Of a stretch of 64,000 bases of DNA, positions 2,901 to 54,935 are shown one piece after another; the first letter of the stretch is position 1; every line of letters starts with the position of its first letter. Position numbers and translations under genes: made by a program. The stretch is from contig NC_057718.1 of NCBI RefSeq assembly GCF_004010195.1, forward strand, positions 80,905,561 to 80,969,560, given 5' to 3'. Under the pieces are notes generated by a model, which worked only from the letters and a program-made list of their open reading frames with translations, was not told the DNA's origin and made no database searches. Source of the stretch: Chiloscyllium plagiosum (Eukaryota).

Positions 2901-5374
2901 GTAACTGGAAGGAACACACCAGTGGCAGGTTTTCTCTTAAACTTTAAAAAAAAAGATAAATGTTTATGATTTAATACCACTAGAAAAGATTGCAATCATG
3001 AATGAAACTGTTTTGTTCTTTTGATTTCAAGAGTTCTCTGCTGCACTTGCTTTTCCCCAGGGTGAAGACTTCAGCAATGGAGATCTGTCATCCTTTTTTT
3101 TGTCCAGTAAGTAAAATGATCTTGGAGTTTTAGAAGGATGATTTGTATTTTCAGCAGCAAATCCATCTTATTTCACTCCAGTCAGGTGCAATTGCAAGGT
3201 TTGATAGCACAGGCCCATTACAGTTCTTCAGTTAGATAGTACAAGGTCAGTCTCTGCCTACCGGTATTTCTTAGTCAAGGTCTTTTCTCTACATTAACAT
3301 AGATGTTAAAGTACCTGCCTGCATTGAATATGCCTTATCAAAACATTTGATCAGGTTGGCATTTTCTCCTCCCTTGTGATGCCTGAGTGATGGGAAGAAA
3401 GATGGGAAAATACAATCATCATGAAAACATTTGATTCCTAACGTCAAAAAACATTTTCTACTCAAGTCTTAAATAATGACTTCACAATCTCACAGTTGAG
3501 CAGCACTATTTTATTTTTATGTATGTTCATCTCCCTAACACCCCAATCCAATGTATTCATTTTCATACTTCCAAACTTTCTACCCTCCAGCAAGAAACTA
3601 GACAGTGCAAATGCATAATATTAAAATCAAATCAGGCAGGTCAGTCGAGGTCAAGGAGTCTTGGCTTTTGAACAGATGGGGAGCAGTGGGAAACACTGTC
3701 TGTTGCTTTCCATTCCTCTGGGACCTGCAGGCACTGCCCTGTCTCCTTGACATATGACCCTGATAGAATCCCTGAGGACCCACTGGCCAGGAATGTGAAT
3801 GGTGTTTGGACAATGTTTGGAGCATCTTTTCAGGCCCTTTTTTATACTAGGAAGGTAAGCTGTGTTATCCTGAAAGGGTTGTTGAGTGGCTCCTGAGTTT
3901 CACTTCTGCTTCATTCCAGTGAAGAACAATGCTACGCCTTTAGTCATCTGTGTGCACATTTACAGCTACATTCCAAACTGCTGCTACATCACTCCTCTAT
4001 TGGCACAGGACTTGAGACAGATAGATCATGAATGAGAGATGATTGAAAGAAAATGAACTTGAAATGAGCATGAATTGTGTTAAAATAAGGGAGATTTGCA
4101 TATAGTCAACCTTATGCTTCCACCCTGACCTATCTTAGTCCATTGGTAAGGTGAACATAGACATCTGGACATAGATCTGGATGCAGTAGCTGACCAGGAC
4201 TTCTTACATCTCATTGAATGCTACATATTCCAAAACTTAGTGCTGACCTACTTTTAAGATTTTTAGGCCTGTGGTGTGTTTCATCCACACAGTTTGTCAG
4301 AATCCAACTTCACATACCAAGGTACACAAATCTCTCAGGAACTCAGTACGAATCTTGATGGATAACCGTATCTTGTTTTGTCTGCCTACTGAAGGTCTTT
4401 ACCAGAGTGTAACAGTTATTGCATACCAACAACTACTTGGAACCACAGATGAGACTGAAGATGAGGATGAATACAGGATGAGTCACTCAAGAGTGTGTTG
4501 ACCCTGCCTGTGAGAGGTGCTATCCCGCCAAACACGCTGGAGCTTAAGCTACAACAATAGAGAAAAGCAAGCAATCTTAGCCCATCCATCCCTGGCTTAA
4601 TCCTCTCCCTCAGATAACGTCTTGTGTCACTGGCCTAGGTACAAGTTTAGCTGAATTCGCTTTTAACATGGTGATTTAGGTTGTTATAGTGAATTAACAT
4701 GTTGTGAATGATTCAGCATGGGAAAATCAAAGAAATTGAATGAATGACACATTTTTATCCCCTTAGAGAGAAAGAGGAAAAGGTTGCCAATAACTTCACA
4801 ACTTTGGTACCCAGAACATTGATGCTCACTCAAAAGAAAGACACTGAAGAAATATCAAACCTATGTGCAATCTTTGAGAATAATGTTCCATGATGTGCTG
4901 CAGTTAGTTAAAGTGGCTGTTTGAATCTATACTCTCCTCTGTGACTTTTAAACAAAGTCTTCCTTGCTGGTAACAATGTAACAAGCATCAGTTGCTTGAT
5001 ATCTGTGCCAGGTGAGAGGTAGCAAGAGGCCATGGAGACCTCAATCTTCATATAAGCACAGATGGCAACTGGAGAAAGATTAGAATGCAGTACAGAATAT
5101 GGCTTCTAAGCAGTGGCTATTTCTGTGTCCCTTAAGTCTGCATGGATTTGACAGGTGCATTAGGCTTACTATCTGTCCGATGAATAGAGATGCAGATCCA
5201 GTGTTAAGTTGAATGACATTAGCTTGAGCTCTGATGCCTGATATAATTGTCTCTCAGGACAGCCACACATACCAGAACCCTAGCTAGCCCAGTGCTTTAC
5301 AATGTCTGTGTTTAGCAGTAGATGAGACCAGGTGGCCCAAGAATAGCGCCAGGTATGCAATCAGCAGTGGTAAA

Positions 5375-6260
5375 ACTGGGATTAGAAGAGTCTTTGATTA
5401 TAGTGGCTGTTTTCCTAAGGCAGCAGGAAGTATAGACAGAGTCAGTGGAAGGAAGCTTGGTTCTTGTGATAGATTGGGCCATGTTCACAACTCTCTGATT
5501 TCTTGAGGTCTTGGGCAGAGCAGTTGCCATTCCAAGCTGTGATGCATCCAGCTAGGAAGCTTTCTATGGTGAGTCTTTAAAAATTGGTAGGTTGTTGTGG
5601 ACATGCTAAATTTCCTTAGCATTCTAAGGAAGCAGATGCATTGTTGTGATTTCTTGTCTATAGGTTAATGTGGGTAGGCCAGAATAGATCGTTGGTGATA
5701 TTTATCCTTAGGAACTTGAAACTCTCGACCACCTCCACCTCAGCAACATTGATTCAGATAAGAACATGTTCTCAACTCCGCTTCCTGAAGTCAATGACTA
5801 GCTCTTTCATTTTGCTGATATTGAGGGTGAAATTGTTGTCATTACACCATGCCATTAAGCTGTCTATCTCTTTCCGATACTCTGTCTCATCATTGTTTGA
5901 GATCCAACCACTGTGGTGGTGTCATCAGCAAATTTGTAAATGGAGTTAGAGCTGAATTTGGCCCACTGCCATGAGTGTATAAGAAGAATAGTAAGGGGCT
6001 GAGAACGCAGTGTTGCGGGGCCCCAATATTGAGGACTATTGTGGAGGAGGTGTTGTCAACATGTCCTTTCTGATTGCAGTCTGAAGGTCAGGAAGTCAAG
6101 GATCCAGTTGCAGAGGGCGACACAGAGTCTCTGTGTTCAGAGATGGGTTTAATTGGAATAATGGAGTTGAAGGCAGAGCTGAAGTCAATAAATAGGAGGA
6201 TGATGTAGGTGTCCTTATTCTCCAGATGTTCCAGGGATGAGTTAGGACCAGGTAGATGTG
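5375..6260 (-). mobile_element. Decayed Rex1/Babar-like LINE RT and C-terminal fragment
   Basis: Minus strand reads ..[20 protein letters not shown].. at ~6160-6230 and ..QRVVNMAQSI..LPSTDSVYTSCCLRKTATIIKDSSNP; both are typical Rex1-type motifs. Confidence 0.75.
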
Positions 6261-8577
6261 ATGTGGTGACTTGAATGAAGTGATGCTACTGCAATTACAA
6301 TACCACACTCCCTTCAATGTTACTAAGTCAAAATCTTGGAACTTCCCATCTTAACAATACTGTTAGTATACCTAAACCAGATGGACCACGCAGTTATGGA
6401 AGATTACACAATTACCCTGCAAAGGACGAAGAGGCATGTGTGGTCAGTAATGGTTTTGCCCATGACACTCACATTTCAGTACAAAAAAACAAATTCCAGG
6501 AGGAATGGAAAGCACTCCAATAAGATATGGTGATTGGAGAAATACATGTAATCAGTCTGTGAAGTTAATGTCTCTTACGGTTTTTTTTGCGGGGAGGTAT
6601 ATTATTCTTTTGCTTCTTAACATAAGTTCAGAAGACCTCTGTGTACTTAAATAACACAGCTAAACAAATGGGCTTAAAGTAACTTTGATGGACATAAAAG
6701 TTTTATTATTAAAAAGATGTGGCAGCATTTGCATTTAATACAATAATGCTGCCTAAGTGGCAATAATACACTAAAGCACATATTTTCTCAAATGTTATAG
6801 TGCAATAACTGGTATAAGTCGTGAAGACAACAATGCACTTTACATTATCACATCTTTATTCATTTAAATTTAATTGCATTTTCCAAAAAAGTTTAACTTT
6901 TGAAGCAAACATAAAGAGTTGTGTTAGTTAAATTTGTTGACACAAAATAATGACTGATAGCTGTGATAAAGTAGTCTCTTATTCACTGGAAAATAATGAG
7001 GGAAGCAGATTAAAGGCTAAGGAAAATCTAAAAGTGACAGGGAAAGTGGGCAAATGGGAACTTATTTAATGGCTTAAATGGGAAAAAGTCAGGACAGCAA
7101 CTGTCACAAATTATTTGGGAAGAGTGCACCAATAATTAAGCCCCAAACTGTCACAAGTGTCAAAACATTTAAATGACCAAGATGATCAATTGCCTGACTG
7201 GCTTCAATTCAGACTAAAAGAAATACACACTAGGTTTTGGCTTTAACAAGAAAATAACTATTTATTGTAAACAAACTTATATTTTTACAAGTGGCAAAAG
7301 AATTGATTAATCTACTATTGTATGATTTACACTACACTTCTTTAAAATTCCAATCTCATATACACATATTTACACTCAGTCACAAAGATCTAGACAAAAT
7401 GATTGCTTCACAAATATTATGGACAGAAAAATGTGGACAAGAAAACAAATTCTGTAGATCAACACCTAGACCACAGCGGCAAGATGAGTTTTTGCTCACA
7501 TAATTTTGACCATTAGCAATGATGACACAATACTGTCCACAGAACAATAGTTGATCTTCAATTCTATAGCCAATCAGGTGGACTTTTCTCGCATTAGAAT
7601 TTTTTTCTTTTTAAAGTCTCTAGGCTTTTGTCTTTATTGTTCACAGAGAAAAGGGTGAGATGTTTTTTGTTGGCAGGCTTCTGGATGGGTGAACTGCATT
7701 CCAGGGCTATGAAACTGTAACTTCAAAAATAAATCTGAAAGGTTATTGCTTGGCAGTTTTCCTTTGAATCAAAAACTCCTGATGCCAATTTGTCTCAGAG
7801 TATACACCTTGCTATTTGAAAAATAACCAAATCTTATGTAGCTAAAGTTAACACCACATAATCCCACTTGATCTTCAAGTTGCAAAAATTATCCTGATAC
7901 TTTAGCTATATAACAGTGTCCATTTCCATTTTATAATCCAAAGGGAAATAAAAGTATATTGAATAGCAACAACAGGGACAGAAATCAAAGTTAGAGGGCT
8001 GTCAGAAATGGATGGTACAGTGGGATCACTAAGGAAAGCGGATAAAATTAGAACAAAAAAACCCAAGCAATGGGCTGCAAATGCCAAAGAAACTATTGAT
8101 GCCTGCATGCCACACATACCCTAAAACCTGCAATGGAAAATACAGTCTGCAGTCTCACTGATTCTTTTCTTTCCAAATCACTTGTAACTCACAAGAAATA
8201 AAAGTTGCAAAGATGAAACAAAAGTGAATGAGATTGAACAAAGCATGAGTAGTGGCAGAGAAAAATAAACAGAAAAACAATAAAGACAGGTGACAAAGAG
8301 ACTAAAATTCTCTGAATTAATAAAGAATTTATTAGTCTATATTTATAAGACTCTAAGAAATAGGAACAAGGTAGGTTGTTCAGCCCCTCAAACTTACTCC
8401 ACTATTCAATAGGATCATGGCTGATGTGGTAATCCTTACACTTACTTTCCTGTGTTTCCCCCATAACCTTGATTCCCCTCCTGATCTAGAATCTATCTAT
8501 CTATCTCAGCCTTAAATATACACAAGGACTCTTACACACATTATTATAGATATTTCTAATGAAGCTGTTCAGATGTA

Positions 8578-19750: not shown

Positions 19751-19989
19751 TCGGATCACATAGATTGATTGGAGTGGTAGTTAGAGGCAATGTGGAATAT
19801 ACAGGAACTAGTGGGCGCGATGGTTGGCAGTTGCAGAATGGTAGATAAACCAAGGATACAGTCAGTCACTTGGATTTATATATTAATGAATTGAAACCTG
19901 CATCCTCATTTTAAATGATTAAAGACTTAACAGGAATCTAGATTTGTTCAAAACATTGCATCAGTTGTATGAGATTTTGATCTTTTACG

Positions 19990-20105
19990 ATAAATTCTGT
20001 GTCCTATGATCCTGCACCATTAGCTGCCTGACAAAGGAGCAGTGCTCCGAAAACTTGGACTTCCAAATAAACCTGTTAGACTGTAACCTGATGTGTGATT
20101 TTTAA
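19990..20105 (+). mobile_element. Decayed PLE terminal-repeat fragment with a degenerate hammerhead motif
   Basis: Aligns by eye to 22734-22855 (ATAAATTCTGTG..GGAGCAGTGCTCCGAAA..TAAACCTGTT..TGTGTGATTTTTAA). Confidence 0.75.
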
Positions 20106-21529
20106 AATTAAACTGCATTTATTTTAATGCAAGTGGCCCAACAGGTAACACAGCTGAACTCGGGCACGGTTGGGAACATGGGACTGGGGTATCATAGCAA
20201 TTACAGAGACGTGGCTCAAGGATGGACAGAACTAGCAGCTTAATGTTTCAGGTTATAGATGCTGTGGGAAGGGTAGAAAGGAAGGGAAAAGTGAAGGGGG
20301 AGTGGCATTTTTGATTAGGGATATCATTCTAGCTATACATAAGGAGGATATTCCTGGGAATACACCCAAGGAAGTTATTTGGGTGCAACGAAGAAATAAG
20401 AAAGGGATGATCAACTTATTGGGATTGTATTATAGACCCTCCCCCCATGCAATAGTCAGCGAGAAATTGAGAAACAAATTTGTAAGGAGGTCGCAGTTAT
20501 CTGTAAGAATAATAGGGTGGTTATGGTAGGGGATTTTAACTTTCCAAATATAGACTGGGATGGCCATAATTTTAAGGACTTGAATGGACAGGAATTTGTT
20601 AAGTGTGTACAAGAAAATTTTCTGATTCACTATGTGGATGTACCTGCTAGAAAAGGTGCAACACTTAACCTACTCTTGGGAAATAAGGCAGGGGAGGTGA
20701 CTGAGGTGTCAGTAGGGGAGTACCTGTACTGGGATCAGTGACCATAATTCTATTAGATTTAAAGTAATGATGGAAAAGGACAGACCGGATCTAAAAGTTG
20801 AAGTTCTAAATTGGAGCAAGGCCAATTTTGATGGTATGAGGCAAGTAATTTCAAAAGTTGACTGGGGACAAATATTTGCAGCTAAAGAGATGGCTGGAAA
20901 ATGGGGAGACTTCAAATGAGATAATGAGAGTCCAGAGTTGGTATGTTCTTGTTAGGCTAAAAAGGAAGGCTGGTAGGTGTAGGGAATGCTGGATGACTCG
21001 AGAAATTTATGATTCGGAGATGCCGGTATTGGACTGGGGTGTACAAAGTTAAAAGTCACACAACACCAGGTTATAGTCCAACAGGTTTAATTGGAAGCAC
21101 ACTAGCTTTTGGAGCGACGCTCCTTCATCAGGTGATTGTGGAGGGCTCGATCGTAACACAGAATTTATAGCAAAAATTTGCAGTGTGATGTAACTGAAAT
21201 TATACATTGAAGAATTGATTGTCTGTTCAGCCTTTCATCTGTTAGAATACAGTGATAGTTTCACTTCTTTCATGTGTAAATCACAAAACCCTTTTTTTAA
21301 AAGTTGCACTCTCGGGTGAGCTGTTAACAATGGTGATAGCTAGACAATGTGTTGAAAGTGTCTATCTCTATGACCTGATGTTTAGATTGATTCCAAACTA
21401 AAAAGTGAAATAACAGACTTTTACATAAATTCATGCAGTTTTTGAGCTCTGAGCTCGACATGAATCTATGTGGTTTTTGAGCAAAGTGCAATGTAACTTT
21501 GTACCAAAAGAATTGTCTGTCTGGGGTGG

Positions 21530-22314: not shown

Positions 22315-22767
22315 CAGACACACACACAGACAGACAAAGACCCACATGCACACATATATATTGTGTGTGGTGAATTTTTTTGGTACAAAGTTACATTGCA
22401 CTTTGCTCAAAAACCACATAGATTCATGTTGAACTCTGAGCTCAAAAACTGCAAGAATTTATGTAAAAGTCTGTTATTTCACTTTTTAGATTGGAATCAA
22501 CCTAAACATCAGGCCATAGACAGAGAACACAGGGGGCTAACACCTTCAACACATTGTCTAGCTATCACCATTGTTAACAGCTCACCCGAGAGTGCAACTT
22601 TTAAAAGAAAGGGTTTTGTGATTTACACATGAAAGAAGTGAAACTATCATTGTATTCTAACAGATGAACGGCTTAACAGACAATCAATTCTTCAATGTAT
22701 AATTTCAGTTACATCACACTGCAAATTTTTGCTATAAATTCTGTGTTACGATCGAGCCCTCCACAAT

Positions 22768-22802
22768 CACCTGATGAAGGAGCGTCGCTCCGAAAGCTAG
22801 TG
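22768..22802 (+). ncRNA. Minimal type I hammerhead ribozyme motif (PLE-associated)
   Basis: CAC-CTGATGA-A-GGAGC(GTC)GCTCC-GAA-AGCT-A-GTG: intact core boxes, 5-bp stem II, palindromic AGCT stem III, CAC/GTG stem I. Confidence 0.72.
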
Positions 22803-25458
22803 TGCTTCCAATTAAACCTGTTGGACTATAACCTGGTGTTGTGTGATTTTTAACTTCGAGAAATTTAGGTTTTCATCAAGAAAAAGGAGGAAGCATACAT
22901 CAGGTACAGACAGCAGAGATCAAGTGAATCTTTAGAAGAGTATAAAGGCAGTTGGAATATACTTAAGAAGAAAATCAGGAGGGCAAAAAAAGGACATGAG
23001 ATAGCTTTGGCAAATAGGAGAATCCAGGAATTTTACAAATACATTAAGGACAAATGGGTAACAAAAGGGAGAATAGGACCTGTTAAAGATCAGCAAAGAC
23101 ACCTATGTATAAAACCACAGGAGGTGGGGGAGATACGAAATGAGTATTTTGCATCAGTGTTACCATGAAGAAGGATGTGGAAGAGATAGAATGTGGGGAA
23201 ATAAATAGTGACATCTTGGAAATGTCCATATTACAGAAGAGATGGTACTGGACAGCTTAGAACACATAAAGGTGGAGTCACAACTAAATAGGATAGTGAA
23301 GAAGATGTTTGGTATGCTTGCCTTAATTGGTCAGTGCATTGAATACAGGAGTTGGAAGGCCATTTTGCATTGTACAGGATATAGTTAGGCCACTTTTGGA
23401 ATACTGCATGCAATTCTGATCACCCCTGCAATAGGAAGGATTTTGTGAAACCTGAAAGGGCTCAGAAAAGATTTACAGACATGTTGCTGGGGATGGAGGA
23501 TTTGGGCTATAGAGAGAGGCTGAATAGGCTGGGTCTGTTTTCCCTGGAGCATTGGAAGCTGAGGGGTGACCTTATAGAATTTTATAAAATCATGGAGGGC
23601 ATGGACACAGTAAATAGACAAGGTCTTTTCCACAGGATAGCAGAGTCTAAAACTGGAGGACATAGTTTTAACGTGATGGGGAAAGATTTAAAAGGGATCT
23701 GAGGGACAATTTTTTTTTATGCAGAGAGTGATGCATGTATGGAATGAGCTGTCATCTACCAGTGAAGGAGGCTGGTATGATTATCACATTTAAAAGCATC
23801 TGGATGGGTTCATGAATAGGAAGGACTTGGGGGGATGTTGGCCAAATGCTAGCAAATAGGACTAGATTAATTTAAGATGTCTGATTGGCATGGATGAGTT
23901 GGTCCGAAGGGTCTGTTTCATCCCTATGACTATACGGGGACCAAAACTGCTTACAGTACTTCAGCTGTGGTCTCACCAACACCTTGTACAGATGCAGTAA
24001 GAATTCCCTACCCTTGTACTCCAACTCTCTTTAAATAAGAGCCAACATTTAATTAGCCTTCCTTATTACTTGTTGTATTTGTGTGCTAGCTTTCTGTACT
24101 TCATGTACAAGTGTCCCCAAGTCCTTTTGTGTTGCTGCTTTCTGCAGATTTTCCCCATTTAAATAATACTGCTGTTTTGTTCTTCTTTCCAAAATGAACA
24201 ATGTCAGAAATCCCACATTATACTCCATTTGCCAACTTTTTGTCCACATACTTAACCAATCAATACCTTTATGAAAACCTTTTCTTACTCCCTCTTACAA
24301 CCAGCTTTTCCACCAACAAACTAATACATATTGTAAATAATAGCAGTTCCAGCACTGATCCTTGTGGAAACCCACTGGTCATAGTTCACCAACCTGAAAA
24401 AGAACCCTCTGTCCTCGAACCAATTCTCCATCCATGCCAACATATCACCTCCAACACTGTGGGCTCTTTTGACTTAAACTTTTGTGAGGTACTTTGCAAA
24501 GTCCAAATTAAGGACATCTACTAGTTTCCCTCTGTTCACTCTGCTTAAGACTTCCTTAAAAAAACTTTAATTTCGTCAGACATGAATTCCCTTTCATGAT
24601 GCCATGGTGACTCTACTTGATTAGATAATGATTTTCCAAATGTACTGCTATTACTCCCTTGATAGTTTATTCTAATAGCTTTCCAACAATAGATTTAGGC
24701 TAATTGGTGTTTAGTTGCCTTTTTTTTGCCTCCTTCCATTTTTAAATAGGGGTGTCATATTAACAGCTTTCTAATCCTCTGGTACGACTCCAGATTCCAA
24801 TCATTCTTGCAATATTACAACTTAATGTATCCATTTTATTTCTATAGCTACTTCTTTTAGGATCCAAGGATGTAAGTCATCAGGGCCAGGGGACTTACCT
24901 GCTTTTAGCCCCATTAGTTTGTCTAATACTACTTCTCCAGCAATGGTTATTGTACTAAATTCTTCTCTAATATTTAGTATTAATGGGATGTTCATAGCAT
25001 CTTCCACCACAAAGGATGATGCAAAATATCTGTTTAACTCTGCAATTTCTTTGTCTCCCCTAAACCTTCTGCCAAATATTTTTCTAAGGGGCTATGTTCA
25101 CTTTGACCTCTCTCTTCCTTTTTGGATTTTTAAGGAATCTCTTATTGTCAGTTTATATATTCCTCACTAGTTTGCTCTTGTAGTTTAGTTTTTCTGTCTT
25201 TATTTTCTCTTTAATCCTCCCTTGCTAGATTCTGAATTTATTCATGTTCAGGCCTATCATTAACATTGTTTTTATGCTATTCCTTTCAACTAAATACCCT
25301 CCTTAACTTCCTTGGTTAGCTATAATTGGTTTATCCTTAGAATCTTTCTGCCTAACTGCGATGATTTGTTTACTAAACTATAAATCATGAATTACCTCCT
25401 TAAACATTTGCCACTGTTTGCTTCCTGTCATTCCTGTTGATCTACCTTCCCAAATCAC

Positions 25459-25694
25459 CATGACTTGGAGGTGCTGGTGTTGGACTGGGGTCGACAAAGG
25501 TTAAAAATCACACAACACCAGGTTATAGTCCAATAGGTATATTTGGAAGCACTAGTTTTTGGAGCACCGCTCCTTCTTCGGGTGGGTTGTGGAGAATTCT
25601 CCACAACCACCTGAAGAAGAAGCAGTGCTCCGAAAGCTACTGCTTCCAAATAAATCTATTGGACTATAACCTGGTATTATGTGATTTTTAACTT
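25459..25694 (-). mobile_element. Miniature fold-back PLE derivative of the same family as 21010-22855
   Basis: ~95-bp arms meeting at GTGGAGAATTCTCCAC; ~39-nt tail at the left; TSD TTCC(C/T)AAATCAC at 25447-25458 and 25695-25706. Confidence 0.8.
25608..25640 (+). ncRNA. Minimal hammerhead motif, slightly degenerate
   Basis: CAC-CTGAAGA-A-GAAGC(AGT)GCTCC-GAAAGCTA; one stem II mismatch. Confidence 0.5.
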
Positions 25695-26230
25695 TTCCTA
25701 AATCACTTTAGCTAACTCTATCCTGATTTCATTGTAATTCCCTTTTAGTTAAACACAGTTGTTTTTTGATTTAAGTTTCTCCCTTTTGAACAGAATATTA
25801 AATTTTATCAAGTTATGATCATGACTTCCGAGGGAATCTTTTACTCAGAGGTAATTTATTAACCCTGCCACATTGCCCGCCTCCAACCTCATAGTCCCAC
25901 AACCCCGCACCGCCCGTTTCTACCTCCTGCCCAAAATCCACAAACCTGACTGCCCCGGCCGACCCATTGTCTCCGCCTGCTCCTGCCCCACCAAACTCAT
26001 CTCCGCATACCTCGACACGATCCTGTCTTCCTTAGTCCAAGAACTCCCCACCTATGTTCGGGACACCACCCATGCCCTCCACCTCCTCCATGATTTCACT
26101 TCCCCGGTCCCCAATGCCTTATCTTCACCATGGACATCCAGTCCCTGTACACCTCCATCCCATCACAAAGGCCTCAAAGCCCTCCGCTTCTTCCTTTCCC
26201 GCCGTACCACCCAGTACCCTTCCACCGACA

Positions 26231-27337
26231 CCCTCCTTCGACTGACCGAACTGGTCCTCACCCTGAAACCCTCCTTCGACTGACCGAACTGGTCCTCACC
26301 CTGAAACCCTCCTTCGACTGACCGAACTGGTCCTCACCCTGAAACCCTCCTTCGACTGACCGAACTGGTCCTCACCCTGAAACCCTCCTTCGACTGACCG
26401 AACTGGTCCTCACCCTGAAACCCTCCTTCGACTGACCGAACTGGTCCTCACCCTGAAACCCTCCTTCGACTGACCGAACTGGTCCTCACCCTGAAACCCT
26501 CCTTCGACTGACCGAACTGGTCCTCACCCTGAAACCCTCCTTCGACTGACCGAACTGGTCCTCACCCTGAAACCCTCCTTCGACTGACCGAACTGGTCCT
26601 CACCCTGAAACCCTCCTTCGACTGACCGAACTGGTCCTCACCCTGAAACCCTCCTTCGACTGACCGAACTGGTCCTCACCCTGAAACCCTCCTTCGACTG
26701 ACCGAACTGGTCCTCACCCTGAAACCCTCCTTCGACTGACCGAACTGGTCCTCACCCTGAAACCCTCCTTCGACTGACCGAACTGGTCCTCACCCTGAAA
26801 CCCTCCTTCGACTGACCGAACTGGTCCTCACCCTGAAACCCTCCTTCGACTGACCGAACTGGTCCTCACCCTGAAACCCTCCTTCGACTGACCGAACTGG
26901 TCCTCACCCTGAAACCCTCCTTCGACTGACCGAACTGGTCCTCACCCTGAAACCCTCCTTCGACTGACCGAACTGGTCCTCACCCTGAAACCCTCCTTCG
27001 ACTGACCGAACTGGTCCTCACCCTGAAACCCTCCTTCGACTGACCGAACTGGTCCTCACCCTGAAACCCTCCTTCGACTGACCGAACTGGTCCTCACCCT
27101 GAAACCCTCCTTCGACTGACCGAACTGGTCCTCACCCTGAAACCCTCCTTCGACTGACCGAACTGGTCCTCACCCTGAAACCCTCCTTCGACTGACCGAA
27201 CTGGTCCTCACCCTGAAACCCTCCTTCGACTGACCGAACTGGTCCTCACCCTGAAACCCTCCTTCGACTGACCGAACTGGTCCTCACCCTGAAACCCTCC
27301 TTCGACTGACCGAACTGGTCCTCACCCTGAAACCCTC
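26231..27337 (+). repeat. Perfect tandem array, 29 copies of a 38-bp unit plus 5 bp
   Basis: Unit CCCTCCTTCGACTGACCGAACTGGTCCTCACCCTGAAA; (27333-26231)/38 = 29; no variant units seen. Confidence 0.97.
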
Positions 27338-27433
27338 ACCTTGACCTTTTTCCACCTATCGCATTTCCGACACCCCTCCCCCAAGTCCCTCCTCCCTACC
27401 TTTTATCTTAGCCTGCTGGACAAACTTTCCTCA

Positions 27434-27468
27434 TTCCTGAAGAAGGGCTTATGCCTGAAACGTCGATT
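27434..27468 (+). ncRNA. Minimal hammerhead motif in the PLE 3' repeat
   Basis: CTGAAGA-A-GGGC(TTAT)GCCT-GAA-ACGT-C: core boxes, 4-bp stem II with one G-U pair, palindromic ACGT, GUC cleavage triplet; stem I is weak. Confidence 0.62.
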
Positions 27469-28499
27469 CTCCTGTTCCCTGGATGCTGCCTGACCTGCTG
27501 CGCTTTTCCAGCAACACATTTTCAGCTCTGATCTCCAGCATCTGCAGACCTCACTTTCTCCTGCCCATTTCAGATCTAAAGTAACTCACTCCTTCATTGG
27601 CCGCATGACAAGTTGTTCTTGGAAATGATCCCTAATCAATTCTATGAATTCACTGCCTTAGCTCCCTTTCCAATTTGATTAACCCAATCAAAATGAAGAT
27701 TAAAGTCATTTATAATTATTGCTCAATCATTTTTACATTCTGTTGTTATCTGTTGGATTATAGCCTTTCTGACATAGTGGCTGTTTTGGGATTTGTACAT
27801 TATTCTGACCAATGTCTTCTTTCTCTTGTTGTTTTGTTCTACTTCTGCCCAAATAGAGCCCAATCTTCTGATTTTCGCTCACAACTGTGCTCATTTCATT
27901 TCCTATTAACAGTGCACCCTCCCAACCTTTTACATCCCTCCTATCTCTCTGAAAAGTCAATATCCTTGAATGTTACATTCCCAATTTTGATCTGGTTTCT
28001 GTAAGGGTTATAAGATCATTTTCATTTACCTCAATTTATGTGGTTTATGCAAATACAGAATTGAATGTGATACTATTATGTCAGTACACTCACTGGCGTT
28101 CTACATTCTTTACTGTCAAACACTTCAATGGATTTACTGGTTTCTACCATTACTAATAAGTATGTCTACTATTGCAGAAAAATGCATTGGAACCTGTGAA
28201 TAACCAACAGGTCTTTCATTATTATAATTTGTGGCGAGTTGTTAAGTGCCTTAAAAATTTGTAATGAAGAAGAAAATTTCATTATAATTGCTATTCCAAT
28301 TGAGCATTATCAAATAAAATCAGTTTATATTTAAAAGAAAATGAGATTAAAATTGTTAAGCTAGGCATTCTAAATATAGTATGATAAAAAAGTACACAAA
28401 TTATATGTTTAGTGATACTAAATTGCATAAATATATACATTCTTGTCTCTACAAAGATACATTTTTAGATTTACTGTACATGTCAGGACATGATAGAAT

Positions 28500-28812
28500 G
28501 ATCTTTTTCTCAGGCTAGGGGAGTCCAAAACTAGACGGCATACGTTTAAGGTGCGAGGGAAAAGAATTAAAAGGAACCTGAGGGGCAACTTTTTCACACA
28601 GAGGGTAGTGTGTGTATGGGATTAGCTGCCAGAAGAAGTGGCAGAGGTGGGTACAAATACAACATTTAAAAGGCACCTGAATGGGTACATAAATAGGAAG
28701 TGTTTAGAGAGATATGAGCCAAATGGGACTCGGTCAGTTTCGGATGTCTGGTCAGCCTGGATGAGTTGGACCGAAGGGTTTGTTTACCTGCTGTATAACC
28801 CTAAGACTCTAA
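28500..28812 (+). mobile_element. CR1 3' fragment
   Basis: GGGGAGTCCAAAACTAGA..FKRHLNGYINR..GGACCGAAGGG. Confidence 0.85.
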
Positions 28813-31800
28813 TTCAGAACTGTAAACACCAGGAGGTACAATGTAATATTTTTAATGCAAGTATTCTACAATTTCAATCAAACAAACTAAGTATTCATCA
28901 ATTGGCATTAATAATACACAAGTATGGCATAGGTTTTTGCAAAGAAGTTCTAATTGGAATTAAGAACTGAAAAGCACTAAGCTTCTATTCGGAATATAGG
29001 GTTGTGTTTACAATTCAGATTTTGCATTCATTAAACTATTTCAGATAAACTAAACTAGTAGTTTATCTGAAATTAAGGGCCACCTCCAGTAAGATTCCTC
29101 GGAATAAATTCAGTCCAGTGTCACACTTATTTAGGAGATCTGGGTTAAACCATTGGACTTTCCAGTGCACTTTACCTACCAAAGCCCAAGTTAAATGTCG
29201 ATGTACGGTTTTTTTGGTCCACGAAGTACTAAACTTGTTTTAAGGTTGGACTTGTCCCAAATACAAGTGCTGTCCTGGGTATGACTGCGAAAATCCCCAT
29301 CAGGCCATGTTGATGCGTTTCTGCTCGGATGATTGCTCAAACTATAACATCCCAAGCCAGCTGCTGCAATGTACAGTCAAATGACCTCGATGTTCTTATT
29401 TGGAAAAATTAACTGGTTGCCCTAAATGCAGTATTTTACATAGTAATAGAGACATATTCTGAATGCTGGTGTGACCTCATGAAATACGCATTATTAGTGT
29501 AGCAAAAATTATCTGGAGACCGAAAGAAGGTAATCATATGGTAAGTTGTTTGTTGAGGTTTACTGATTGCACATTTTAACGATAAATTATTGCAGAATTG
29601 ATGTTACTCTGTGCAAATTTTGAAGTGTGGCAATCCAATATTGTATACTTAACCTGCCTGTACTGATTAGTTGGGGTAGCAGGATTAAGTTATTCCTCAA
29701 ACTCCTGGAAATACATAAGTTCATATTTTTGTTTCTAGATATTTCAATAACTAGAGCTCATTTTTACTAAACAAGGACAATCAATCAAATCGGATTATTT
29801 ACATATATTGGAGTGGAACTGTGATTGATATGTGCAGCTCTAACACATTCATTTGGATTGGACAATGCCTTGTCCATTAACTGTAACCGTAGAAAGCAAT
29901 GGGAGGAAATAAAGATTTTATTGTAACCAGATTTAGAGAAAAGAATTGCCAATAAATATTCGTTGATTACGTCTGCAGCAACATCTATACAACTAAAAAC
30001 GATAAAGTGATTGATTTGACAATGTGTGAGTAAAGAATGTTGCAAATTGTTTTTTAAAATATGTTTTTAGTTTTATTGAGAATTCGCAACCGTAACGGTA
30101 ATGGGAAATAAACTCTCGCAAGCAATCTTTAAAATAAAAGATAATGAACGAAAGCGTGCATTTCTCTATATCAGTACATTTCAAAATTCTAAATACAATA
30201 GTTGAACCATCTCGAGCTTTAAAACACTCTCGTTTCATTCCACAAAGTTGCCGCCTCGCATAGAGAATTCTCTATAAAAGCTTGATTCGATTTTCTTTGC
30301 TCTTATTCAAAAAATTCCGTCGAAGGATTAAAGAAATTTTATTTCAACATTCAAAAAGATGTCGAATCGCAGAGATTTCACCAATTGCCTACAAAGTCCA
30401 GAGAAAAGTCAAAGTTATAATCAATTGCGTAATTGTTACAGATTTTGAGGTGGGTTGCAAAGAATGTTTGTAATTCAAAAAGTCAGTCCGATCCCACTGA
30501 TCACAGCAAATAGTTTGCTACGTTATGTAATTCAAGAACATAATTCTCCCCGTTTATTACTTTTCTGTGCGTATTTGCCAAAGAAAAGTTTGCAAAAGTG
30601 TATTTAATCATGCAGTCCTTTTAAGCAATTTGAATATTTTGCTTTACAAAGGTAAGTTGTTTATCAAAGAAAACGTGTAACCTCAACAAATTCGGCAGTA
30701 AAGTATTGTGAAATAATGATGAATAGTATACATCAATGCGTGAAGTGCAAAAATGTATCTGGATAAAGCTCGCGCTTTAGCACGGGCAGAGAATGGAGGA
30801 AGAAAAAAAATTGGCTGATATGGAATATTAATTAAATAGAAAACAAAGCTACAATTTCGATTCATCCCGATACTGTTATGATGCCTGTTTTTATCATTGA
30901 ATATTTTAGTGATCGCTTGAGAAGACAGAAACAACCTTTCCCTCAATTGCTAAATGGATAACATTCCAACGTTCTGACGCAGAAGCAAACGTACCCTTCT
31001 TTCCTCTCAACACGATGTCAACTCATTACCAAACTGCTGCTTTGCACAAGGAAATTCCAAACATCTGTCGTTAATCAATGTCGCAAATAAGAGTTGGAAT
31101 TGTAATAGTCCACGGTGTGATGACATCATTAACTTTTATTAAAACAGGGGAATTAAGTAACTGACAAATATAAATGCACAATTCAATTCAAACTGTTCAA
31201 GTGATTTTATTCCTTTGCTTCTACCAGATAGCACCAACTTTGAAAGATATACATTACTGCAAGTAAACATCAAGTTGTCAAGAGAGAACTGGTAAAACAT
31301 TTATTTATAAACTGTTCGATCATAAAGCTTTCTATCATAAATTCCTCAGATTTTGAATTGTCAAACTGGCACACTACAATGTGAAAACTTGAGCGGTCGC
31401 TGTGCAAACCATTATTTAACATTAGTACTAAAGTTTAAAATAGCATTTTAAATAAAATGTTTATCATTGGGGCACAACGTGTTTCTTTGGGGTAGGCAAC
31501 AGATTGAATTTCGCACTAACGGAGTCGTGAATTAAAATTTACCCCCTGGTAGTGGTTGAAAACATACTAATTTTCCTGTGTTGCTTCCATGGGAACAGTT
31601 TGAGTGTAGATTTTAAAGAAACAAAGCTTAACAATTCTTTCTTTACGCGGTTTATTTCCACGTGTGCAGGCATGCATTCGTTAACGCAATTCCTCCACAT
31701 TTCAACATCATCTAGGAAGACGAACCCAGAACCTACATAAGGGAGAGAGAAAAAAAATCATGAATATTTAAGTTCCCTCGCTACCTTCCACCCAAAGGAA

Positions 31801-32669: not shown

Positions 32670-32811
32670 ATGGTAGGGGAAATGGAAAATAAGGAACGAC
32701 CAAAACCTACCCCAGACTATCTCATGCAACTGATGAACGACAAGAAGCTGATGAGTAGCCTGCCTAACTTCTGCGGCATTTTCAATCATTTGGAAAGGTT
32801 ACTGGATGAAG
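32670..32811 (+). CDS. QKI: Protein quaking (STAR family KH RNA-binding protein), coding exon 1 (QUA1 dimerisation domain)
   Basis: [47 protein letters not shown] is nearly identical to the vertebrate QKI N-terminus; 142 coding nt end at the phase-1 donor AAG|GTATGT. Confidence 0.97.
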
Positions 32812-35800
32812 GTATGTAAGGTGGCAACGTGTGTTGGAAGTGGGTGGGGAAAGAGGAGACATGCCTTCACAGAGATGCAAACACTTTAAAGGGAAAGTGG
32901 AAATCTGAATGGTACCTTTTGTGCTCCATGAATACTTGGGGGATATTTTGTGAGGTTGTTAGTTCGCTGGGAAGGGCGAGGTGGAGCAAAATATATACCC
33001 CCTACCCCAATTCCAGCCTTCTAAATAAACAGGGAAGTGGCCAAACTCGGGAAATGCATTTGGATAGAATCCATTTATTGTAAAGAATAGTCTGCTGCAG
33101 TTTGGCTACTATTAACATTTTCATGTGCCTTGAATGTTTATTTGAAAAGTGAAGTGACATTTGACTTTTTTTTCAACTGAGGAGAGAAAATCTAAATGGG
33201 ACAGTAATGAACTCGGCAAAGCACCGAGGTAAATGCTTGGTAGACTTCCAGCACAGAAACCCCTGCAGTTCGATTCATTTTGTAGCATTGAGGAACTCCA
33301 GCTATGATATGCTAAGTTTAGTATATGTACCCGCGACTAGGTGGTTCCCCTCTTTCCTGGTTTGGAGGAAATAAATGGATGTTAGTTTTGTTCTGATGTG
33401 TTTGCATGCAGTGTAGGTAATTTTAAAGTAATACGAGACGCAGTGATTTCGACAGTGATGGGTGGATACCTGTAGCCCAGGCGCGGTTTAAAAACCCGGC
33501 ATAGAGGTTACAAACATCTATGCTTGCTTGATGTTGAATGAGTGGGATGTAGTCGGGACAAAGAGAGCCCGGAGGGGAGGTGGCATAATATACCCGTGCA
33601 AGGATTGAGAAAAGTGGGTCCACAGGTTGGGCGGGGGAGATGGAAATACGTCTTGAAACTAGGGCAAATAATTTGAAGTAGGGAATAGAAGTATTTAAGA
33701 GGGTGGGCACCGATTTGAAATAGACGGCAAAGAGAGAAAAGACAGTAACTAATAGTTGACTCGGTTGCCTTGATCTCTACTTAATGGAAAATTTGTTCAG
33801 TATCGAAGTACAAGAAACTTATCGCACTTTTTTTTGCAGCTTTAGTAACTTGTCTAACTGACATCTTTAAATTTTCGACCCGGGTGTGGCGTGTGTGAAC
33901 ATGTCGGTGTTTAAATATTTCTGTTCCTATGAATGCAAAATATGAACAAATCATTTCTTGGTCCCCAGGGTGCCTATTTTTGCGAAGCTTGTCTTTGACC
34001 ATTATTCTAGTTTCATTTAGTCTTGGGTCACAAATAATGGGCGTTGCGCCAAATACGTCAAATAGAGGCAAAGAGGGAATAACAGTTAAGAACTTAACAG
34101 GAAATCGAGTGATGAGGGAAGCAGACGATTGAAGCGTCAAATTGACGTTATTTGAGGTTCAGTCAAGTATTTGTTTCACTGATTTTAGGTCGTGTTTCAT
34201 TTTTCGTTGGTAATAGTGTGTGTTTTAAAAGGAAGTTACAGTCGAAGGAATTAAACGTTTGGAAGGAGTTTTCAATAGAACAGTTCAGATTTTTGATTTG
34301 TAAGAGCTAGGCGATAAAAATGGAGAACAAAGCTTTAAAACATAAACGAGAATTGGGCTGTCATTGACTGGTCAAGTGGTTGGATCATATTTCAGACCCA
34401 TTTTGTTACAACATTATTACGAAACAGTGGCAGGTTTAACTAGAGGGGGAGGGGAGAAGAGCTATATTAGGAGGATGTGGTCCTATCGACATTTATCCAG
34501 CTACACTTGATACGCTGTACAAGTAGCATAAAACTTAAATAGCGGCAATACACAAACTCTTGAACTTTCTTTAGTAAACAGCATTTCCAGAGACCCGTAC
34601 TATCAAATTACAAAACAAGTTCCTCTGCGATATTTATTGACTAACGTTAGAAATAACACGTAATTGCTGTTATCTCTTCGTACAATCGAGCGTCAGAGCG
34701 GCGTGTGGCCCTTGTATTATGAGCACTCGCATCTTTTACACTCAAACATCCATTTGAAATCCATACACTGTTGTCTCGTACTGTAACTGTTCATGTTTCT
34801 AAATCGGTACTAGCTAACCCAGGCACTTGAGTTTGATAGTATTTCCCCTTTTCAGCAAAGGAAAGTTGTATTAAAGTCGAAACGAAATGCCTGTACAATT
34901 AAATCGTTGCTTCTGCTTTAGCCAGGCGTCGGATCACATTATTGAATCTAACGATGCTGTTAAATAAAGCTGTCAAACTTAGTAAAAGTTCCACTTTTGA
35001 GCGGTAGGGTGTGCCAGATCTTTCCTCAAGAATCAGTGAGGGTATTGTTTCCTTTTTTTGAAAAAAGAGAAACCTTAACTTCAGTAAATGCGTTCAGCCC
35101 ATGTGCCAGGCAGTTTTCCATGCTGTTCTGATCGATCTTCACATTCTAACAACTATTTGTTCCGCGTGCTGTTTGATAGTCAAATACCACTACGTCGTGG
35201 TTCTGCAGATTAATCTTAATTTCAGTAATCAAAGTATTTTGACGTATTTCAACAGTTTAAAAAAAAAGTAATTTGTTGAATTTGAGAGGCAAATATTATC
35301 AGAAAACTTACCTTGCCATCTCAGTTTTAATGTAATTTAAATGTTAAACTGAGAAAACTTGATTCAATCTTTAAAAAAAACAAAAAAAGCAATTGCTGTG
35401 CTCTTGTGCAATCATAATTTCTATTTTGTCGAACAAAAACCATCTCAACACTAACACTCGTGATTTAATAAAAGTTATATTGCTTCAATAATTCAGACAG
35501 AATTATTACTTGAATTTTTGAACCTTAACCAGATTTGCATTTTGAATGGGCAACCTACTATCTTTGTATATGTATATTTAATCAATAGCCATATGTGGTA
35601 CCTTTTTCTAAATTTAATATGTAGTCCGGAGGATGTGGTAACTACTTCTGAGTTTCTATTCCAGTAGTTACTACAGAACATTGAACTCCCAAATTTATTA
35701 AACTTTGCTGTGATAGCCATCTGTGCCTGACTGTCTAGAGGAGTTCACTTCCACATCTTCAGGAAACCACTTCTAGTGACTTGATTTAAAAACCAGCGTT

Positions 35801-53861: not shown

Positions 53862-54935
53862 ATTATAGACATGTACAGCACAGCAACAGACCCTTTGGTC
53901 CAACTCATTCATGCCAACCAGAGAGCCTAAATTAATCTAGTCCCATTTGCCAGCATCCGGCCCATATCCCTTTTAAACCCTTCCTACTCATATCCCCAAA
54001 CAGATGTCTTTTAAATGCGTAATTGTACCAGCCTCCACCACCACCTCTGGCAGCTCATTCCAGCACCCCCTGCATGAAAAAGTTGCCCCATATGTCCCTT
54101 TTTAAATGTTTCCCCTGTCACCCTAAACCTAGGCCCTCTAGTTCTGGACTCCTCCACCCCAAGAAAAAGACCTTGTCTATTTACCCTATCCATGACTCTC
54201 ATGATTTTATAAACCTCTTTAGGGTCACCACTTATCTTCCAGTATTCCAATGAAAGTAGCCCCATTCTGTTTTGCCTTTCTCGAGAGCTTAAGCCATTCA
54301 ACCCTGGCAACATCCTTGTAAATCTTTCCTGAACCCTTTCAAGTTTAACAACATCTTTTCGATAGTAAGGGGTTCAGAATTGAATGCAGTATTCCAAAAG
54401 TTGCCTTATCAACGTCCATGACAGACGCAACATGACCTCCCAACTCCAATACTCAATACACTTACCAATAACAGCAAGCTTACCAAATGCTGCCTTCACT
54501 ACCCTGCTTATCTGTGACTCCACTTTCAAAGAGCTATGAACTTGCGCTCAAACGTCTCTATGTTCAACAAAACTTCCCAGGACTTGACCATTAAATGTAT
54601 TCATCCTGTCCTGATTCTCTCTACCAAAGTGCAGCAGCTCGCATTTATTTAAATTAAACTCCATCTGCCATTGCTTAGCCCACTGCCCCATCTGATCAAG
54701 GTCCTTTTGTACTGTGAGGTAACCTTCTTCTCTGTCAACTATACCATCAATTTTGTTGTCATCTGTAAACTTACTAACCATACTTCCTATATTGAATGTA
54801 GTATTCCAAAAGTTGCCTTATCAACGTCCATGACAGCCGCAACATGACCTCCCAACTCCAATACTCAATGCACTGACCAATAACAGCAAGCTTACCAAAC
54901 ACTGCCTTCACTACCCTGCTTATCTGTGACTCCAC
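53862..54935 (-). mobile_element. 5'-truncated CR1 with a 145-bp internal segment duplicated at its 5' junction
   Basis: KFTDDNKIDG..; 54379-54523 is repeated at 54791-54935. Confidence 0.88.

Follow-up and report, generated by a model that had tools for sequence, protein, structure and literature searches.

A 38-nt tandem array at a deletion join in a Penelope-like element, probably a transposon-derived minisatellite

Introduction

A short piece of reverse transcriptase (RT) coding sequence stands 29 times in a row within a broken Penelope-like element, at the point where the rest of the coding sequence has been lost. The element lies in a 64-kb stretch of assembled DNA, the whole of which is called the window here. 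The question raised by this locus is who wrote the array: the RT of the element itself, a DNA-repair event, the ordinary growth of a minisatellite, or the software that assembled the sequence. The explanation favoured here, as probable though far from secure, is a transposon-derived minisatellite seeded by the deletion join, with a length and a perfection that were possibly shaped by gap filling. A preliminary description of the locus had put telomerase-like or rolling-circle copying by the RT in the foreground, and had named a later minisatellite expansion and a loop of the assembler or gap filler as alternatives; it is these alternatives that have become the leading explanations.

The array in the assembled sequence

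The assembled sequence has a 38-nt unit in 29 exact copies, at positions 26230–27331 (+ strand). The preliminary description had set the start at 26231, one base too far to the right, while its count of 29 perfect units agrees with the assembly, both by exact copies and by Tandem Repeats Finder (29.2 copies, 100% matches, 0% indels, score 2216). The first unit (26230–26267) is native sequence, the final 38 nt of the RT fragment, and six further matching letters run past the array, up to 27337. According to Tandem Repeats Finder it is the sole long tandem array of the window, the other row being a single 2.2-copy 16-mer, and no other perfect tandem duplication with a period of 12–299 is present in the 64 kb.

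The unit was correctly recognised at the outset as part of the RT coding frame, in which it reads TLLRLTELVLTL, and the early remark that no long ORF runs through the array also stands, as stop-free runs reach at most 30 codons on the + strand and 37 on the − strand. A protein encoded by the array is ruled out, with stops every 38 codons or less. Hairpins within the unit are of 4–5 bp only, the array has 58 CpG sites, and the runs of G on the − strand of the unit could, judging from the letters, form a weak two-tier quadruplex.

The host element

The insertion is flanked on both sides by a 5-bp target-site duplication, TGCCC. The left copy (25874–25878, +) is the longest word common to both insert ends, and the right one (27562–27566, +) repeats the same 5 bp. 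Between them lie a 5'-truncated Penelope-like RT fragment with two frameshifts (25879–26267, +), recognised through its protein relatives, the rest of the array, and the 3' piece, a pseudo-LTR end of very high copy number (27332–27561, +). Relatives of the RT are abundant (526 of 548 candidates at E≤0.001), the best named one being a carpet-shark protein (P0001, 89% over 72 aa). At the unit, the closest protein is P0121; its source label is Proteus mirabilis (a 474-bp contig), the protein is a shark-type Penelope RT piece, and it is probably host contamination of a bacterial assembly. No related loci were found among viral contigs or among plasmids, and a single distant match (48%) among prokaryote genomes.

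The relatives match the Pfam families RVT_1 and GIY-YIG; the broken RT piece of the window itself has no Pfam match. The GIY-YIG endonuclease is present in the full-length relatives P0050 and P0102 and deleted in the copy studied, where the array runs straight into the 3' piece, just as first reported, with the rest of the RT and the endonuclease missing. Of the 38 relatives with a located RT motif, 18 have 400–408 residues after it (0/18 shark proteins), so that about 1.2 kb of coding sequence, plus a spacer, is missing at the join, the native length of the deleted part being known from proteins alone. The two frameshifts in the RT piece are of 1 nt (near 26095–26099) and 2 nt (near 26160–26166), a net change of −3. 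Since −1 and −2 cancel, one frame is open for 134 codons (25879–26280, +), with the catalytic motif FTMD read out of frame; this open frame is probably due to chance.

A pattern scan places a minimal-hammerhead-like core (CUGANGA, a 4-bp stem II and GAAA) in the 3' piece at 27437–27466 (+). The core has no hammerhead match in Rfam, and its folding is no better than that of shuffled sequences (z 0.68); a hammerhead motif of this type has been described for Penelope-like elements in the available text of PMC4209133. Many family reads change strand at 27432–27457, at or just before the core, and in each run 3,000 reads have loose ends before 27433: it is at the ribozyme motif that inverted and truncated insertions start.

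Public reads and the family

Public reads were aligned to 27256–29535, a segment comprising the last two units and the right side, for 4 of 22 runs; the raw reads are 150 nt long and give about 0.3–0.5-fold depth. Over the unique flank, single-copy depth is 0.24 and 0.44, against 54,795 in the last full bin of the 3' piece, and the family size estimated from reads is about 3,600–6,300 RT copies and 100,000–160,000 terminal copies. At the junction base, 27293, the native letter dominates (2084 of 2148 reads in X19, 1895 of 1950 in X20). A non-native base is therefore carried by at most 64/2148 and 55/1950 reads, and unit arrays make up no more than 3% of family reads. The number of array reads expected per run is 2.6–4.1, the higher figure assuming a 3.6-Gb genome, compared with a background of up to 55–64. 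The word shares of the runs (0.75–0.78 in the best ones) were rejected as evidence on whether array words are missing, the rule by which words were counted not being given. Two matches to the junction 20-mer in metagenome contigs were likewise set aside as chance matches in unrelated GC-rich DNA.

On the right side of the insertion, contig 6 of X1 (organism A) connects the flank with 28 letters from the end of the element, a little short of the bridge criterion of 31. In organism B, contig 11 leaves the window at 27561 with 162 unlike letters, and its sequence probably represents an empty site, the insertion being absent there; the flanks of the two organisms differ by 3.3%. At three positions in the 3' piece (27369, 27423 and 27479), the letter of the window differs from that in 56–61% of the reads of organism A and in 97–99.6% of the contig depth of organism B. 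Because the window letters are carried by about 40% of the reads in the former and at most 3% of the depth in the latter, the copy belongs to a young subfamily that has grown in organism A.

The deletion join

The six letters following the last unit (ACCCTC, 27332–27337, +) are common to the start of the unit and the start of the native 3' piece, and form the direct repeat that bounds the unit. Family reads that align from 27332 onwards have other letters before that point (6385 in X19 and 6150 in X20). The 3' piece thus natively begins with ACCCTC, and for this reason the apparent partial 30th unit is sequence that the 3' piece has in common with the unit start. These loose ends also make real the ACCCTC microhomology that had been noticed in the sequence. 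Within the element the word occurs at unit starts and at 27332 only, and the unit-unit and unit-to-3' joins are identical over 38+6 letters. With the deletion in place, two copies of ACCCTC stand in the element with 32 nt between them, and the 11-letter stretches that end at the two words are alike at 9/11 positions. A second microhomology had been claimed for the block CCTCACC(C/T)TGA. The resemblance holds (a 10/11 match between the unit and the 3' piece), but both copies were kept at the join, and the block was therefore not used as a microhomology that collapses.

The join itself, GAA|ACC, has zero common letters, and stays so under any order of events. When the two C-rich pieces are joined at other points, 39% of such trial joins have a 6-mer of the first 25 nt recurring within 60 nt upstream, so that seeds of this kind are common. 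The very first 6-mer, however, recurs in only 2–5% of them. Both breakpoints border the 10/11 block that was kept twice, and the precision of the join hints that the deletion and the first duplication were one event.

Age of the copy and of the units

The RT piece shows signs of decay. Within its 125 codons, compared with 8–17 close relatives per segment, four residues are absent from all relatives used, namely S at 26029, C at 26115, K at 26167 and T at 26209 (0/17, 0/11, 0/4 and 0/8); the last of these is contradicted at the DNA level by the loose-end consensus of the family in X1 and X5. A fifth residue, H at 26089, was left out, being present in P0121, which covered too little of the segment, and K at 25993 was not counted, as it is common to 5/17 relatives. 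At the rate of the RT piece about 15 substitutions would be expected in the 1102 bp of the array, against none in the assembly (P about 2e-7). If the units are really identical, they would postdate the decay of the copy by far, or would have been renewed since. The private residues could alternatively have been inherited from a defective source copy, the comparison being with other subfamilies and species, and if the assembly wrote a consensus unit the timing argument falls.

Other features of the window

The window has two N-gaps, one of 369 letters inside a LINE copy and one of 785 letters inside an inverted repeat. The arms of the latter (484 bp, 93.6% identical, 21046–21514 and 22373–22856) surround the gap; each ends in a Penelope-like terminus, and a hammerhead-like core is found at 22771. 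Both arms include 230 bp that are also found at 19873–20105, which suggests captured local DNA. A palindrome (25460–25696, 88% self-complementary), formed by two ends of a second Penelope-like family in inverted orientation, is located 180 bp to the left of the insertion; Rfam matches at 25561–25631 fall below the gathering scores, reflect the palindrome and were discarded. On the other side, the segment at 29140–29530 looks less like a repeat than the sequence around it, and near 29520 it ends in a GT donor-like motif. About 5 kb downstream of the array, positions 32670–32813 (+) hold the first coding exon of a gene for a STAR-family RNA-binding protein (Pfam STAR_dimer, E 7e-16), followed by a GT donor; we take this gene to be QKI/Quaking. 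A direct duplication of 145 bp (95.9%) lies inside a LINE copy, at 54379–54523 and 54791–54935, with the two members 412 bp apart.

Origin of the array

The most probable course of events has four steps. A 5'-truncated copy inserted with its 5-bp target duplication, as the structure of the locus shows, and probably did so after organisms A and B split. The loss of at least about 1.2 kb joined the RT to the 3' piece, so that a second ACCCTC came to stand 38 nt after the first. Between the two direct repeats, slipped mispairing or repair synthesis could have duplicated the 38 nt, and expansion of the VNTR type may have followed after the decay of the copy, or the units may have been renewed since. 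The unit is the segment between two short direct repeats, and is therefore a classical minisatellite seed. It is transposon-derived and longer than 10–20 bp, and the repeat that bounds it, ACCCTC, falls within the range of 5–20 bp; this 6-nt repeat exists only through the deletion join. The contrast between a decayed RT piece (four private residues, two frameshifts) and an unchanged array points the same way. Precedents are available for both parts of the process: 300 of 7,276 tandem repeats that arose from transposable elements (TEs) in the human genome are reported to be flanked by direct repeats of 5–20 bp, mostly of 7 bp (PMC3389668), and internal deletions through microhomology have been reported as a route by which Penelope elements die (PMC3846280). 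Against a minisatellite, the unit-unit junction is known from the assembly alone, the shared word stands exactly at the join, as in only a small share of the trial joins, and the long human arrays derived from TEs are described as usually diverged and imperfect (PMC3389668). The count of 29 and the full identity of the units were probably set in part by short-read gap filling, and the real array may have fewer or more units than assembled, or be less perfect.

From here it is a short way to the view that the array is mostly or wholly a product of the assembly, a gap filler having looped on the 38-nt unit until the scaffold gap was full. We consider this unlikely, but with enough weight to be kept in mind. 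The real allele would have 1–3 units; with lower likelihood it would hold the element's intact middle, in which case the array could stand in a gap that truly holds this middle. Perfect identity is what a k-mer loop writes, and the array is the only long one in the window. Its 28 extra units (1064 nt) amount to 87–89% of the missing coding length (1200–1221 nt), and the 369-N gap amounts to 69–72% of the corresponding interval in two sister LINE copies (513 and 538). As sized N-gaps fall in ordinary repeats, the contigs would be short-read contigs, unable to span a perfect array of 1.1 kb. A loop of this kind needs reads of the unit-unit junction, and its exit needs either the unit-to-3' junction or a merge over six letters. 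Weighing against it, the exit into the 3' piece shares just those six letters, and a second perfect tandem duplication (period 12–299) is missing from the window. In a benchmark of four tools, tandem repeats made up 75–100% of wrongly closed gaps (PMC10265787, available text). Less likely again is a single DNA-repair event that made both the deletion and the repeats: an end with the complement of ACCCTC would have re-primed 38 nt inside the other end, in an iterative templated insertion of the polymerase-theta or MMBIR type, with little later expansion. Such an event explains the shared word exactly at the join as well as the breakpoints at the 10/11 block, and, as it may postdate the insertion, a decayed copy with a perfect array is compatible with it. 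Repeated cycles of priming and extension at the junctions of deletions have been described (PMC4032859), but the deletions there are typically of 50–200 bp, the available text of that source holds no case of 28 exact cycles, and GAA|ACC is a join without common letters.

Copying by the RT of the element at integration, the origin first proposed, is not supported, and we regard it as highly improbable in either of its forms. In the telomerase-like form, the product would have realigned on an RNA that was already deleted and had the layout A-B-A', where A is ACCCUC and B is 32 nt; in the rolling-circle form, a 38-nt circle would have been entered via ACCCTC and left by a switch to the full-length RNA. 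The attraction of the idea is that the deleted form has the very layout that drives repeat addition in DRT10 and telomerase (PMC12632851), that Penelope RTs are described as close to telomerase, that the cDNA, coming from the 3' piece, enters the array by way of the shared word, and that the copy belongs to a young subfamily and is seemingly absent in organism B. The intact RNA has no A', however: all 59 relatives with the motif, drawn from 121 proteins, continue with N/D-x-F and none with K-P. No strong boundary stem-loop is predicted either, the three stretches 5' of the unit folding at −2.4 to −7.3 kcal/mol where shuffles average −0.9 to −4.3, that is, about 0.8 to 1.7 SD below the shuffles. 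The last pass continues for 350 nt beyond the unit, and DRT10 is reported to have tolerated a B of 10 nt and lost repeat addition with a 20-mer (PMC12632851). With the junction base in no more than 3% of family reads, there is no programmed site in the family, and the array is unchanged inside a decayed copy. A deleted source family was not found, a weak argument; when gene models were screened for this pair of frameshifts or this junction, 1 of 20 candidates matched, an intact-frame relative. The available text of an in vitro study of Penelope RT reports internal initiation by the purified protein and makes no mention of repeat addition (PMC11167929), and listings of the open literature contain no account of a Penelope RT making perfect internal arrays. 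As to rolling circles, those proposed for Penelope-like elements come from ribozyme-cut ends (PMC4209133), and a pattern scan found no ribozyme core bordering the unit. The tandem forms described for Penelope-like elements are hammerhead retrozymes related to the pseudo-LTR, not pieces of an ORF (10.64898/2026.07.22.740005). The lack of A', the weak fold, the small share of reads and the contrast in decay together leave the proposal without support. Assembly can erase unit variation, which leaves RT copying a slender chance, and a real array of about 29 perfect units, written in one go by the Penelope RT on an internally deleted RNA, is the least probable version of all. The array is at most like an A-B-A' slip, and fails the telomerase-type class on three tested features, these being an A' downstream of the template, a boundary stem-loop and repeats from the same template site.

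Significance and relation to known systems

As a minisatellite, the locus is of little consequence, thousands of TE-derived tandem repeats having been catalogued in the human genome (PMC3389668). It is a tidy example of an internal deletion that created a short direct repeat and seeded an array, and it also cautions that reads are needed to back a perfect array in a gapped assembly. If the RT did write the array, Penelope RTs would be linked to telomerase-type repeat addition in vivo, and the locus would be a natural genomic record that telomerase's relatives among the retroelements can add repeats processively. The deleted RNA is an exact and cheap substrate for the purified Penelope protein system (PMC11167929).

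Among known systems, the gap-closing errors in the available text of PMC10265787 are alike in that identical units are written where short reads cannot span; they differ in scale, GapCloser having turned 2.9 copies into 7.9, and gap filling at the present array is inferred. Telomerase and DRT10 (PMC12632851) share with the deleted form its A-B-A' geometry and a perfect tandem product. Unlike in those systems, as described there, the intact RNA here lacks A', a boundary stem-loop is missing, B measures 32 nt, synthesis goes past the presumed boundary, and the array is found at one locus among thousands of copies. Polymerase-theta end joining (PMC4032859) likewise copies a junction insert from beside the break with minimal homology, whereas the deletion here exceeds 1 kb and the insert consists of 28 exact repeats, unlike the cases reported.

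Closer to the present copy are the dead endonuclease-type Penelope-like copies of Arkhipova et al. 2013 (PMC3846280), with their 5'-truncated RT, pseudo-LTR, frameshifts, short target duplication and internal deletion, which is there a microhomology deletion; the available text mentions no tandem array at the deletion. The TE-derived tandem repeats of the human genome (Ahmed and Liang 2012, PMC3389668), for which the Haber-Louis and slipped-strand models are cited in the same source, resemble the array in having a unit above 20 bp that comes from within a retroelement's body, at a single locus, with a bounding direct repeat, here of 6 nt, and a G+C content above 40%. They differ in that the direct repeat of the present locus was made by an internal deletion, and in that its 29 identical units, as assembled, far exceed the mean of 2.3–2.4 units reported for the Alu case.
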